A stretch of 38,552 nucleotides of DNA, from positions 1 through 38,552 of the forward strand of contig DASRGZ010000080.1 in NCBI GenBank assembly GCA_035650735.1, in the 5' to 3' direction. Below, in pieces: positions 19,326 to 22,655 of this stretch. Each line of letters begins with the position of its first letter. Within the stretch, counting starts at the first letter, position 1. This DNA comes from Chthonomonadaceae bacterium (lineage in GTDB: Bacteria > Armatimonadota > Chthonomonadetes > Chthonomonadales > Chthonomonadaceae). The notes beneath the pieces are model-generated. The model was not told where the DNA came from. It made no database searches and saw only the letters and a list, made by a program, of their open reading frames with translations. The translations under genes were made by a program, and so were the position numbers.

Positions 19326-20507
19326 TTACTCCTTCAACAGCGTGCGCAGTCCCTCGACGAGCCTGCCGATCCCCTCCATGGCGCGGTCTTTCGGCAGGGT
19401 GCCGTAGGAAACGCGCAGGTAGCAGCCGGCCTCCATGCCGAAGGTTGTGCCGGGCAGGGCGGCGACGCGGTGCTCGGCGATGAGCCGTTCCACCAGGCGC
19501 ATCGGGTCTAAGCAGGCGTGAATCTTGAGCAGGAAATAGAACGCGCCTTTCGCCTCCGGCACGGTACAGAGCGGCTGGAGCGACCGCAGCGCCTCCAGGG
19601 CGACCTGGCGTACCTCGGCAATGTCCCGCAGATGCTTGCGGCAGTAGTCGGCGCCGGCCTCCAGCGCGCCCACCGCCGCGTACTGCGAAATCACCGGCGG
19701 GCAGATGAGCATGGTATCCTGGATCTTCTTCACAGGCACCAGCAGCTGTTCCGGCAGCACCATATACCCGATCCGCCAGCTTGCAAAGCCATACGCCTTC
19801 GAGAGCGAGTAGAGGGAGATGGTATAGCTTTCGCTGCCGGGGAGACTGCCGGGAGAAAAATGGCGCGCGCCGTCATAGGTGAAGTACTCGTAGGCTTCGT
19901 CGCTGATGTGATAGAGGCGATACCGACGGCAAAGCGCATTGATGGCGCGCAACGCCTCCTCCGCGTAGACCGCGCCCGTCGGATTGTTGGGCGAGATGGT
20001 CAGGATGGCCCGCGTCCGTTCCGTAATCGCAGCCTCGATAGCCTCCAGGCGCGGCTGATAGTTCTCGTCCGTTGCGACGGTGACAGGGCGGCAGCCCGCC
20101 ATCGCCACCGCCATATCGTGGTTGAAATAGTAGGGCGTCAGCAAGATAATCTCATCGCTGGGGTCGGTGACGGCGAGGATGGCGTTCAGGAAGGCCATGT
20201 TTGCGCCCGCCGTAACGACGAGGCTGCGGCCTGCCTGTAGGTCTATGCCGTTTTCGGCGCGCAGTTTGGCGGCGATAGCCTCCAGCAGCGGCGGAATGCC
20301 CTGTACCGGACGGTACTTGTGATTATCGGGGTCGCTCAGAAAGCGCGCAATCGCCTCCACTGCTTGCGGCGGCGGGGGATAGTGGACGACGCCCTGCCCA
20401 AGCGAGATCGTGCCCGGATGGCGGCTGATCATCTCGCCGACAATCGGAATGACCGGCGACTGCACGGCCTGCATACGAAACGGTTCCTGCATAGTTTTAC
20501 AATTCAT
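19326..20507 (-). CDS. PLP-dependent aminotransferase class I/II
   Basis: ISLGQG, SPNNPTG, SDEAY, SLSKAYGFASWRIGY (PLP Lys), YLRVSY. Confidence 0.95.
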   Translation of the reverse strand: MNCKTMQEPFRMQAVQSPVIPIVGEMISRHPGTISLGQGVVHYPPPPQAVEAIARFLSDPDNHKYRPVQGIPPLLEAIAAKLRAENGIDLQAGRSLVVTAGANMAFLNAILAVTDPSDEIILLTPYYFNHDMAVAMAGCRPVTVATDENYQPRLEAIEAAITERTRAILTISPNNPTGAVYAEEALRAINALCRRYRLYHISDEAYEYFTYDGARHFSPGSLPGSESYTISLYSLSKAYGFASWRIGYMVLPEQLLVPVKKIQDTMLICPPVISQYAAVGALEAGADYCRKHLRDIAEVRQVALEALRSLQPLCTVPEAKGAFYFLLKIHACLDPMRLVERLIAEHRVAALPGTTFGMEAGCYLRVSYGTLPKDRAMEGIGRLVEGLRTLLKE

Positions 20508-20530
20508 CTATATAAGGTTAACGTAGGCCT

Positions 20531-20726
20531 GCTGCGACCGTTGGCAGCTCTTACTCCCATTGAAACTAGGCCAGCCGCTCGTTGGCGTCCGACATATTTT
20601 TGCTGCTACCGTTGGCAGCTCGGTAGACACCCCCAATTGTGTGGATACATCTCAAAAGCGTGCGCTCCATGAGAAGCGTCAACACGGTTGGGAGGGATTA
20701 CCGGCAGCTCTTACTCCCATTGAAAC
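20531..20726 (+). CRISPR. Candidate orphan repeat-spacer-repeat unit (36-bp repeat, 35-bp spacer; second repeat split by a MITE)
   Basis: R1 20531-20566 GCTGCGACCGTTGGCAGCTCTTACTCCCATTGAAAC; spacer 20567-20601; R2 = 20602-20621 + 20711-20726, 35/36 identical after removing the insertion. No cas genes in the window. Confidence 0.45.
20622..20702. mobile_element. 81-bp MITE / internally deleted IS with an 8-bp target duplication
   Basis: Terminal IRs GGTAGACACCCCCAATTGTGTGGA / GGTAATCCCTCCCAACCGTGTTGA (17/24 match), flanked by GGCAGCTC at 20614-20621 and 20703-20710. Confidence 0.8.
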
Positions 20727-21757
20727 CCCGGCCCCTCTGGTATCGCCGCGCAGCCGTCCCTCAGCTTGAGCGGCGAGTTGGGCGCAATCAGCCCGGTCTC
20801 CAGGTAGAGCGCGTTGGGCAGGCAGGCCATGATGTTAAGCTGCACCGGGCCGCCGCCGTGCGAGGCATAGGGCCGTCGAAAGGCGTCTGCCAGCAGGCCG
20901 ATTTGCAGCAGAGCGGTCGGCCCACCGGCACGGCGCAGGTCAGGCTGCACGATGTCTACCGCGTCGCGGCGCAGGAAGCGCGCGAAGTCGGCGCGAGTAT
21001 AGAGGTTCTCGCCGGTGGCAATCGGGATATCCAGGGCTTCGGCAAGACGGGCATACCCGTCCACGTCGTCGGCAGAAATCGGCTCCTCCCACCAATAGCA
21101 GCCCAAATCCTGAAAGGCGCGGCCCCGCCGCAGGGCCTCTTTGGTCGTCAGCGACTGGTTGGCGTCTACCATTAGCCGCACGTCCGCGCCGATGGCCTTG
21201 CGGACAACCTGAATACGGCGCACATCCTCTTCCAGGGTCGGGTAGCCGACCTTGATCTTGACGGCGCGGAAGCCCTGCTCGACGGCCTGGGCGCAGATGC
21301 GCTGCACCTCGTCGTCGTTATAGTTCAGCCAGCCCACCATCGCGTAGGCAGGGATCGCTTTGCGCGCCGCGCCCCACAACTGCCAGCAGGGAACGCCGCG
21401 CATTCGCCCCAGGCAATCCCAGAGCGCCACATCCACCGCCGCGATGCCGAACATCGCCAGGCCGAAGGAGCCGTGATACTCCGTTTCCCGCAGCATCGCT
21501 TCGTGCGTCTGACGGACAAGGGCCGGGTCGGTTCCCAGGACGACCGGTTTGAGGATATGTTCGATGAGCGCGGCCAGCGCCTCCGGTGCGCCCGCCACCC
21601 GCCCAAAGCCGACCTCCCCGACGCCGGAGATATTCTCCTCGGTGCGCACGACGACCTGCGCCGATCCGGCTCCCGGCAGGCTTTGCAGGGCATCGCGGAT
21701 CGGGGTCGGGTTTGGGGCGCTGCGCCGCACGGTGACTTCTAACGCGGTGATTTGCAT
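20711..21757 (-). CDS. Mandelate racemase/muconate lactonizing (enolase superfamily) enzyme
   Basis: AAVDVALWD, VKIKVG, MVDANQ, WEEP, ATGENL, VQPD, ASHG, PEGPGF. ATG at 21757. Confidence 0.93.
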   Translation of the reverse strand: MQITALEVTVRRSAPNPTPIRDALQSLPGAGSAQVVVRTEENISGVGEVGFGRVAGAPEALAALIEHILKPVVLGTDPALVRQTHEAMLRETEYHGSFGLAMFGIAAVDVALWDCLGRMRGVPCWQLWGAARKAIPAYAMVGWLNYNDDEVQRICAQAVEQGFRAVKIKVGYPTLEEDVRRIQVVRKAIGADVRLMVDANQSLTTKEALRRGRAFQDLGCYWWEEPISADDVDGYARLAEALDIPIATGENLYTRADFARFLRRDAVDIVQPDLRRAGGPTALLQIGLLADAFRRPYASHGGGPVQLNIMACLPNALYLETGLIAPNSPLKLRDGCAAIPEGPGFQWE

Positions 21758-21794
21758 GGTATCCTCATGGGTTCCAGGGCGTGCAGGGCAGGTA

Positions 21795-22655
21795 CTATGG
21801 GCCGCAGTAGCCTTTCGCGGCCAGCATGTCGGCGATGGCCGTTCCAGTGGCGGCGGACGGCGCGACTTCAATCGGCACGACGATCAGGCCCTCGCTGGAC
21901 TCGCCGTAGGGGCCTTCGGCCAGGACGACTCCGCCTGGCCCTATCGCCAGCGAGCAGCCAATGCACTTGCGCCCTTGCCACGGCCCTGCGCTCAGCCAGC
22001 CCACGTTGCTTACCCCCACGACCGTCATATTATACAACGTGGCCAGCGTGGTATAGGCGGAGCGCCACAGCGCGCCGTAGGGTTCCTTTGCGTTGTCGTG
22101 ATCGGCGTCTACCGCCCAGGCCGAGGGCGAGAGCAGTAGCTGCGCGCCCATGCGCGCCAGCGAATGGCCGAGCGCCAGGGAACTCGGAAAATTATCGGCG
22201 CAGATGGGAATGCCGATGGTTCCCAACGGCGTATGCGCTACGGAGAGCGAGTCGCCAATGGAATAGAGATCGTGGGCAATCTCCAGTTCGTTGATCTTGC
22301 GGTGCTTGAGCAGGATCGCGCCATCGGGAGAGGTCAGGACCGCCGCATTATAGATGCGATCTCCGGCGCGCTCCGTCAGGCCCGCCACCACGTAGATACG
22401 CGCTTGCCGTGCCGCCTGAGCCAGAATGTCGCTGTGCCTGCCGGGAATAGGCTGTGCCAATTCGCGCGCGGCGGGATGCGTCCAGCCGAGGTCCAGGCAC
22501 TCCGGCAGCACGACAATCTGGCAGCCCTGCTCGCCTGCCGCCGCGATCATGTGCATGGCCCGTTGCAAGTTTGCCTCTACCGCGCCGCCCTCGACCCGCA
22601 TCTGGCCTATCGCCAGCATAAACCTGTTGCCGCTCACGTTCGCCTCCTCGCCCAT
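21795..22655 (-). CDS. Carbon-nitrogen hydrolase (nitrilase family)
   Basis: LPECLD, HRKINE and ICADNF triad motifs. Confidence 0.9.
   Translation of the reverse strand: MGEEANVSGNRFMLAIGQMRVEGGAVEANLQRAMHMIAAAGEQGCQIVVLPECLDLGWTHPAARELAQPIPGRHSDILAQAARQARIYVVAGLTERAGDRIYNAAVLTSPDGAILLKHRKINELEIAHDLYSIGDSLSVAHTPLGTIGIPICADNFPSSLALGHSLARMGAQLLLSPSAWAVDADHDNAKEPYGALWRSAYTTLATLYNMTVVGVSNVGWLSAGPWQGRKCIGCSLAIGPGGVVLAEGPYGESSEGLIVVPIEVAPSAATGTAIADMLAAKGYCGP

Follow-up and report, generated by a model that had tools for sequence, protein, structure and literature searches.

This analysis concerns a repeat-insert-repeat unit in a stretch of 38,552 nucleotides (nt), hereafter the window, taken from contig DASRGZ010000080.1 of the Chthonomonadaceae bacterium assembly GCA_035650735.1. 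The unit lies in intergenic DNA in front of a class I/II aminotransferase gene, and one of its two repeats takes in the 3' end of the gene on its other side, which belongs to the enolase superfamily (mandelate racemase/muconate lactonizing enzyme, MR/MLE). An earlier note, made from the letters of the window, had proposed that a spacer of the CRISPR (short palindromic repeats that are clustered and regularly interspaced) type was integrated here at a chance look-alike of a repeat, with duplication of the target. We followed this proposal at the locus itself, in the rest of the genome and among relatives; other contigs of the same assembly are written below as C and a number, followed by the position.

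A gene end present in two copies

The unit consists of an intact repeat copy (R1), a spacer-like insert and a second copy (R2) that is interrupted by a miniature inverted-repeat transposable element (MITE) (Table 1). This layout, the 35/36 identity of R1 and R2 and the MITE-split state of R2 had all been described in the earlier note and were confirmed in the sequence. A T at 20530 and at 20601 is common to both copies, such that R1 might start at 20530, giving a duplication of 37 nt and an insert of 34 nt; the start-to-start spacing is 71 nt. A repeat finder independently picked up both pieces of R2, one over 24 nt at 100% (D2) and the other over 21 nt at 95% (D4), and the 24-mer occurs twice in the window as compared with 0 times in 100 shuffles. 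R1 (apart from R2) and the 35-mer insert are found nowhere else in the 6.52-Mb genome. Tandem duplication was ruled out as a source of the arrangement, as the 35-mer is repeated neither after R2 nor before R1. In addition, 20300-20668 and 20675-20950 are covered without a difference by Logan contigs from four public runs of three studies (mine and soil metagenomes), so that the repeat-insert-repeat arrangement is not an artefact of this assembly, although the window itself may have come from one of these runs.

The MR/MLE protein terminates in P-E-G-P-G-F-Q-W-E-stop, and the duplicated target comprises the 3' end of its gene together with 20-21 nt of the DNA downstream, R1 being a displaced copy of the last four codons and the stop. 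That the second copy encodes F-Q-W-E-stop of an enolase-superfamily gene had been claimed before, and is borne out by the open reading frame (ORF) and its Pfam matches. We read 16 MR/MLE gene ends, namely this one (as the identical metagenome contig L068), that of the same-genus orthologue and those of 14 metagenome relatives. The motif G-F-x-W is present in all 16 and is followed directly by E-stop in 13, with x being S, A, G, D or N outside this genome. Given this conservation in the relatives' gene ends, R2 is the native gene end and R1 the displaced copy of coding sequence. The codons TTT CAA TGG are used for the motif only in this genome (the window and the identical L068), and it is this choice of codons that creates GTTTCAAT, which is ATTGAAAC on the + strand. 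From this comparison of gene ends, the CRISPR-like terminus is a by-product of codon choice.

This comparison also bears on one of the alternatives raised earlier, namely that the gene end is the co-opted last repeat of a relic CRISPR array, for which the ATTGAAAC end is the one point in favour. The other 15 gene ends carry G-F-x-W in DNA that is unlike the repeat and have no counterpart of the GTTTCAAT/ATTGAAAC terminus, whereas here that terminus comes from TTT CAA TGG. The site is accordingly a look-alike that arose by chance, and we hold a relic array to be extremely improbable. The pairing of an MR/MLE gene with the aminotransferase gene was itself met only in this genome and in L068.

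The 81-bp element inside R2 is a genuine MITE, with near-identical short copies, terminal inverted repeats (its ends GGTAGACACCCCCA and GGTAATCCCTCCCA are inverted) and a target duplication of fixed length. Its family counts 36 copies in the genome, which fall into two subfamilies and of which 29 have a perfect 8-bp target duplication, and the depth of words in the public runs goes up 10- to 100-fold across it. The MITE entered R2 after the duplication arose. It had been predicted that array finders would miss the locus, and the genome scan for two-copy repeats described below did miss it, only because the MITE splits R2. The locus thereby illustrates why array finders and annotation pipelines overlook such events: there are two copies only, and one of them is split.

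Table 1. Positions of the features at the locus and of the units and repeats found elsewhere in the genome
Feature	Position	Strand	Details
R1, intact 36-nt copy of the duplicated target	20531..20566	+	sequence GCTGCGACCGTTGGCAGCTCTTACTCCCATTGAAAC
Spacer-like insert, 35 nt (34 nt if the repeat is 37)	20567..20601	none	unique in the genome
R2, first part, 20 nt	20602..20621	+	T in place of R1's G at position 6
MITE, 81 bp, inside R2	20622..20702	none	8-bp target duplication GGCAGCTC at 20614-20621 and 20703-20710
R2, last part, 24 nt	20703..20726	+	native stop codon (20711-20713) and codons F-Q-W-E
MR/MLE gene (enolase superfamily)	20711..21871	-	Pfam MR_MLE_N 9e-16, MR_MLE_C 3e-59
Class I/II aminotransferase gene, downstream	19326..20507	-	Pfam Aminotran_1_2 1e-56
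Class 1 units, 60 loci	examples: C115:41819, C119:18332, C132:10001, C136:1460, C149:11319, C167:27172, C64:81958, C88:10652		repeat 28-33 nt, mode 30; insert 34-40 nt, ~37; near the resident array's geometry
Class 2 units, 25 loci	examples: C182:19182, C188:12920, C218:35876, C44:2736, C10:6485, C17:92631, C198:74393		repeat 34-40 nt, mode 36-38; insert 33-38 nt; spacing 68-78, mostly 70-75
Inserts with self-protospacers	C68:4604, C13:17206, C204:4511, C135:1594, C31:3766, C57:1424, C33:24622, C174:14153		
Inserts overlapping resident spacers	C193:12614 (class 1), C106:28873 (class 2)		resident array at C93:7526 and C93:4107
Solitary DR9 repeats (loci L190-L205)	C33:3081-3117, C89:7761-7797, C13:11714-11750, C155:3404-3440, C76:215-251, C97:2042-2078, C112:9397-9433, C94, C56:6145-6181, C67:6561-6597, C79, C176, C128, C173		

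Repeat-insert-repeat units across the genome

The genome was scanned for two-copy direct repeats, with a 12-nt exact seed, a start-to-start distance of 30-200 nt, a repeat of at least 24 nt and a gap of at least 10 nt. Outside the resident CRISPR array the scan returned 246 pairs, in 147 of which the repeat occurs at most three times and the insert at most twice in the genome; these represent 130 single loci and 7 small clusters. The spacing of the single loci peaks at 66, 67 and 68 nt (17, 14 and 20 loci), while the background beyond 80 nt is 0-1 per distance, except for 4 at 150. Repeat length is bimodal (~30 and ~36-38 nt), with few loci between, and on this basis, with limits that were drawn after the data were seen, we distinguish class 1 and class 2 (Table 1). 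The locus in the window (repeat of 36/37 nt, insert of 35/34 nt, spacing 71) falls in class 2 and brings the number of units in the genome to ~86. Its duplication has the length of the class-2 mode and also that of the 37-nt repeat in the arrays of relatives (see below), and its insert is within the class-2 range; the periods of the relatives' arrays, 71-76 nt, imply spacers of 34-39 nt.

The two copies are perfect in 48/60 class-1 and 12/25 class-2 loci, with mismatch rates between copies of 0.83% and 1.94%, respectively. The 85 loci are depleted in coding DNA, 32 of them being located within stop-free frames of 600 nt or more as compared with 513 of 600 random segments, and show no enrichment at contig ends; a bias of genic loci towards in-frame lengths (15/32 vs 17/53) was too weak for use. 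Under the same scan, 400 kb of the control G004, a complete, cas1-free genome from the same family, yielded 0 pairs, and 400 kb of the control G012 yielded 6, all of one REP-like family, as compared with 8 pairs in the first 480 kb of the present genome. The class-1 duplication mode of 30 nt is 1 nt longer than the resident 29-nt repeat. At C224:43547-43709, three non-CRISPR repeats of 29-30 nt enclose two different inserts at spacings of 68 and 66, which looks as if a second spacer had been added to an off-array unit, so that some units seem to have grown. One candidate, C59:13745-13932, was considered as a remnant of a class-2 native array and rejected, since HEAT-repeat genes surround it and cas genes are missing there; its diverged first copy is probably paralogous DNA.

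The units elsewhere in the genome are true insertions with spacer-like cargo. Eight inserts, all with duplications of ~30 nt and seven belonging to class 1, recur in full length elsewhere in this genome, six of them exactly and two with a single difference. The flanks of these eight self-protospacers have CCG on the 5' side in 4/8 and GCC|G in a fifth. Three of the eight come from contig C15, which was examined as a possible mobile element and turned out to be ordinary chromosomal DNA with dnaE and a BsoBI-type restriction-modification pair. In addition, two inserts, one of each class, overlap at their ends with resident-array spacers over 17 nt (E 3e-6 for each when compared with the 79 native spacers), the class-2 insert doing so with a leader-proximal spacer. 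Such overlaps would be expected if protospacers that overlap or are homologous had been drawn from one invader pool, and the inserts and spacers appear to derive from the same or related invader DNA.

An empty site is available for one class-1 locus at the protein level. The unit at C125:44700-44797 (L046:335-1540, - strand) lies in frame inside a VOC/glyoxalase gene and adds 23 amino acids, giving FYTKVLPFE-TAHRPASLLTEDAG-FYTKVLPFE, whereas 9/9 full-length homologues (66-70% identity) have a single FYTKVLPFE-type segment; the alignment also contained one 100%-identical fragment without the N-terminal region. For that locus, the alignment demonstrates the empty site directly. Class-2 ORFs were tried for the same protein-level comparison and set aside, as 0/7 had a Pfam family and their frames are probably spurious.

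The targets of both classes carry motifs. Class-1 repeats begin with G in 42/60 loci, in the orientation chosen by an expectation-maximisation (EM) step, and the flank beyond their other end reads N-C-C-T-G, with C at +2 in 47/60 and C or T at +3 in 53/60; CC at +2/+3 on either side is seen in 40/60 loci vs ~11 expected. Class-2 repeats start with the consensus G-T-n-G-C-A-(A/G)-C-G-G, in which G at position 4 is found in 18/25 and C at position 8 in 13/25. Because the choice of orientation by EM inflates the information content of such motifs, the locus in the window was scored with a matrix that leaves it out and draws on the other 25 class-2 loci. Relative to random genomic 10-mers, its - strand start GTTTCAATGG, with 5.9 bits, ranks in the top 0.2% and its + strand start GCTGCGACCG, with 4.2 bits, in the top 1%; no more than 4 of 200,000 random 36-mers matched the class-2 motif equally well at both ends.

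Integrative elements often duplicate gene 3' ends, and it could be argued that the duplication is unrelated to CRISPR, being either the attachment (att) scar of an integrative element with a lost interior, the work of a transposon with a long target duplication, or the product of repair with filler DNA. A gene 3' end is generally known as a common target of integrative elements, and, as in att-site duplications, the direct repeat includes the gene 3' end and the gene stays intact. Furthermore, the locus is a synteny break relative to the same-genus genome G001, and the first 14 nt of the 35-mer form an internal word of a multicopy element with 36 other sites. However, the copies are not in tandem, only 35 nt and the MITE lie between them, and no integrase gene or element remnant was found beside the locus. 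With E 0.43 the 14-nt match is no better than chance, and its flanks differ, on which grounds the 35-mer was rejected as a remnant of the multicopy element. Dozens of sequence-unrelated loci of the same dimensions exist in this genome, and a deletion within an att scar that spared both copies and left a spacer-sized remnant would need to have recurred 25-85 times with different sequences. We therefore regard a non-CRISPR origin, and with it the att-like scar that had been listed as an alternative, as very unlikely.

The multicopy element itself begins CTAGAGCGTG.GATGCACTTGGG and has a long form and a short, hairpin-bearing form. Many of its 36 sites lie at contig ends (C100:14, C108:14, C142:31, C173:31), that is, it breaks the assembly; the 14-nt word that it has in common with the insert is internal to it and probably a chance match. 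As for the MITE family found in R2, another copy abuts R2 of the class-2 locus C10:6485 (MITE at C10:6593) and the class-2 locus C38:40468 sits within a diverged copy, such that 3/26 class-2 loci touch this family, which may exceed chance.

CRISPR repeats in the genome and its relatives

Contig C93 contains one array with 80 repeats of 29 nt, periods of 65 (34 units), 66 (24) and 67 (14) nt, and spacers of mostly 36-38 nt. Beside it are encoded Cas2, Cas1, a Csx1-like protein, RAMP, Csm2, Cas10, Cas4, Cas3, Cas5 and Cas7, and the locus is a hybrid of type I (B-like) and type III. The low-coordinate end of the array has a degenerate repeat, which puts the leader on the cas side, and the transcribed resident repeat consequently ends ATTGAAAC. 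It thus has the 8-nt end in common with the repeat in the window, but not the length (29 vs 36/37 nt). The comparison with the genome's own arrays, which the earlier note had suggested, therefore came out in two parts: the insert is of spacer-like length, while the resident repeat is of 29 and not ~36 nt. In addition, small arrays with 2-3 type I-E-like repeats of 29 nt and a 61-nt period are present at C109:6231, C126:9896, C127:3615 and C42:25176; the assembly has no type I-E cas1.

Cas1 was found in 17 of the 25 genomes searched, this one counted, and not in the same-genus G001 (89% complete). Family-level relatives have repeats of 29-30 nt that resemble the resident one. In order-level relatives, arrays of a 37-nt repeat with a period of 71-76 nt stand beside cas1 (7 copies in L027, 13 in L032 and 4 in L030), and this repeat, GTTGCACCGG...GGATTGAAAC, matches the Rfam family CRISPR-DR9 (RF01322). 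Its first 10 nt and the class-2 consensus have 9/10 positions in common, and 9/25 class-2 loci are identical to these 10 nt at 6 positions or more, vs 5.8% of random 37-mers. The repeat in the window agrees with the relatives' DR9 repeat at 6/10 positions at the 5' end and at 8/8 in the ATTGAAAC 3' end. Sites that combine a ATTGAAAC end with at least 6/10 identity to the repeat start number 12 in the genome, the present one among them, and 6/12 are either solitary DR9 repeats or part of the resident array. Solitary full-length 37-nt DR9 repeats, none of them in an array, number at least 15 in this genome; three score above the Rfam gathering score of 45 (58.7, 51.0 and 46.5 bits) and twelve more have E <=2e-4. 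A CRISPR system with ATTGAAAC-ended repeats of ~36 nt, on which the earlier note had made its interpretation depend, is thus represented by arrays in order-level relatives, and here by solitary copies only.

Compared with the DR9 arrays of L027, L030 and L032, the locus in the window has a likeness in its unit length (71-76 nt in those arrays), in the ATTGAAAC 3' end and in a 5' end like GTTGCACCGG, similar to the class-2 motif. It differs in matching the termini only and not the central hairpin, and in consisting of just two copies, with no leader and no adjacent cas genes.

These differences are relevant to the name 'neo-CRISPR' that had been given to the locus. If it were a working one-spacer array, it would be transcribed, processed to a CRISPR RNA with a ATTGAAAC handle and used for interference, and the + strand repeat does end ATTGAAAC, like the resident transcribed repeat and the DR9 family. 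However, no promoter-like site was found in 20350-20850, and a + strand transcript would be antisense to both flanking genes, which are on the - strand. A search of 20300-20900 in Rfam, including the CRISPR-DR models, gave no match at E up to 1, the repeat's own hairpin has a 5-bp stem and is unremarkable (z -1.8), and R2 is split by the MITE. A functioning array is hence highly improbable, and the name holds for an integration scar but not for a working array.

Probable off-target spacer integration

The most probable reading, to which we give a probability of about 0.8, is that one off-target (non-canonical) spacer integration by Cas1-Cas2 became fixed and left this locus as its scar. The duplication and its polarity, its size match to a genome-wide class and its motif match are established, and the core of the original proposal, a spacer integrated at a chance look-alike of a repeat with duplication of the target, is supported by the 85 like units and by the match to the class-2 motif. 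Cas1-Cas2 as the agent is what we infer. Here we propose that the ancestral single copy of 36/37 nt would have comprised the last 15 coding bases and the stop of the MR/MLE gene and ~20 bases downstream, and that both of its ends would by chance have resembled those of a 37-nt DR9-type repeat (G.TGC.. and ..ATTGAAAC). The integrase might then have joined a prespacer of ~35 nt through two staggered attacks at the look-alike borders, and repair of the gaps would have duplicated the target to give repeat-spacer-repeat. Since the target was duplicated, the gene end would have been kept intact, which helps to explain how the event could be fixed. One base change in one copy and the insertion of the 81-bp MITE into the gene-side copy would have come later.

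With regard to the source of the enzyme, we favour a system of the DR9 type, which has 37-nt repeats and is missing from the assembly, either lost or unbinned. This preference is based on G at position 4 and C at position 8 of the class-2 motif, which fit the DR9-type GTTGCACC better than GTTTCAAT, on the bimodal repeat length, which fits two rulers better than one imprecise ruler, and on the higher divergence of class 2 and its lack of self-protospacers, which suggest an older or different source than that of class 1. Alternatively, a scar of the same type could have been made by the resident type I (B-like)/III Cas1-Cas2-Cas4 of C93, which might have arrived at 36-37 nt here since the site matches its repeat at the GTTTCAAT end only. 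The resident module has the sole cas1 in the assembly, with Cas2 and Cas4 beside it; the - strand start GTTTCAAT of the present repeat equals the first 8 nt of the resident repeat (+ strand of C93); and the class-2 insert with a 17-nt overlap matches a leader-proximal resident spacer. Given the position-specific fit, the two lengths and the divergence, we nonetheless consider it unlikely that the resident enzyme was responsible.

Several results weigh against off-target integration by a DR9-type enzyme as the origin of the locus. Besides the cas1 adjoining the 29-nt array there is no second cas1 in the assembly, which is 97.6% complete, no DR9-type array was found in this genome, and a Cas1-Cas2 with a native repeat of the duplication's length (36/37 nt) is not in this assembly. 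The search for a source of the 35-mer that had been recommended came up empty: neither a protospacer nor a protospacer-adjacent motif was found in the own genome, where the best other match is 21/35 (E 0.007), in IMG/VR, which was searched for exact matches only, or in phages and plasmids, which returned chance-level partial matches only. Likewise, the single-copy empty allele that relatives might have preserved was not recovered. In G001 the gene has other neighbours on both sides, 0/75 other metagenome loci have the gene pair (of 76, only the identical L068 does), and in runs X1, X2, X3 and X5 there is no contig that skips the insert or the MITE. For class 2 as a whole, 0/25 inserts have a self-protospacer, and when two regions with class-2 loci, one of which also has a class-1 locus, were searched for empty sites in five relatives, the matches were only to repeat families or away from the locus. 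Little of the ATTGAAAC motif is seen at the far end of class-2 repeats, so that class 2 as a whole mimics one repeat terminus only. The post hoc class limits and the inflation of the motifs by the EM step, both mentioned above, belong to the same side of the balance.

The kind of event is known; what is new is a natural, fixed case at a gene end, among ~86 scars of two sizes in a bacterial genome. Nivala, Shipman and Church reportedly described, in 2018, non-canonical spacer integration and 'neo-CRISPR' loci in Escherichia coli (type I-E) with Cas1-Cas2 overexpressed in the laboratory, and their natural evidence is said to have been circumstantial and to have come from two other species. By analogy, that work seems to be the closest in vivo precedent. 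The events reported there have in common with the present locus a spacer-sized insert and a repeat-length duplication of ordinary genomic DNA outside arrays, and differ in that they followed laboratory overexpression, whereas here we are dealing with a naturally fixed scar, one of ~86 in two size classes, and with a matching adaptation module that is not in the assembly.

In vitro, Cas1-Cas2 of Pyrococcus furiosus was found to perform full-site integration at non-CRISPR plasmid sites that lie a repeat length apart and have border bases in common with the repeat, with a preference for G at the attack site and a single ruler of 30-31 bp (Grainy et al. 2019, PMC6698737). The distance between the sites and the border bases are paralleled here, as is the G-start, seen in 42/60 class-1 repeats; in contrast to plasmids in vitro and one ruler, the present events are chromosomal and fixed, and seem to follow two rulers (~30 and ~36-38 bp). 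Ectopic spacer acquisition inside arrays has been described for Streptococcus thermophilus (PMC7999890, PMC5338259), and resembles our case in that integration took place away from the leader-proximal repeat; the targets there are genuine in-array repeats, while here the target is non-CRISPR DNA. Searches of an open-access library turned up no description of natural genome-wide scars of this kind.

Good documentation of off-target spacer integration exists only for laboratory overexpression and for work in vitro, and little is known of its natural frequency, its fixation and its cost to the host. The locus in the window would represent a natural fixed event in which codon choice alone made the look-alike of a repeat. 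Its 85 companions provide a natural data set on the sequences that Cas1-Cas2 mistakes for a repeat and on how the duplicated length is measured, and in addition show which insertions survive selection, few being in coding DNA and at least one in frame. Taking the interpretation one step further, and here our confidence is just above even, the chromosome could be seen to preserve, like a fossil record, large-scale misfiring of CRISPR adaptation, with ~86 integrations and two rulers, in which the 36-38-nt class was left by a since-lost DR9-type system that is visible through its scars and through ~15 solitary DR9 repeats in front of genes. If this is true, off-target adaptation would be a recurrent natural source of insertions, able to lengthen proteins in frame, as with the 23 amino acids in the VOC enzyme, and extinct CRISPR systems and their target preferences could be reconstructed from the scars in the host alone.

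The solitary DR9 repeats carry compensatory changes in their stems, and many of them are followed by a (C)AAA-rich tract such as AAACAAACAAAC and then by a start codon. They may have become repeat-derived elements of the 5' untranslated region or processing elements.

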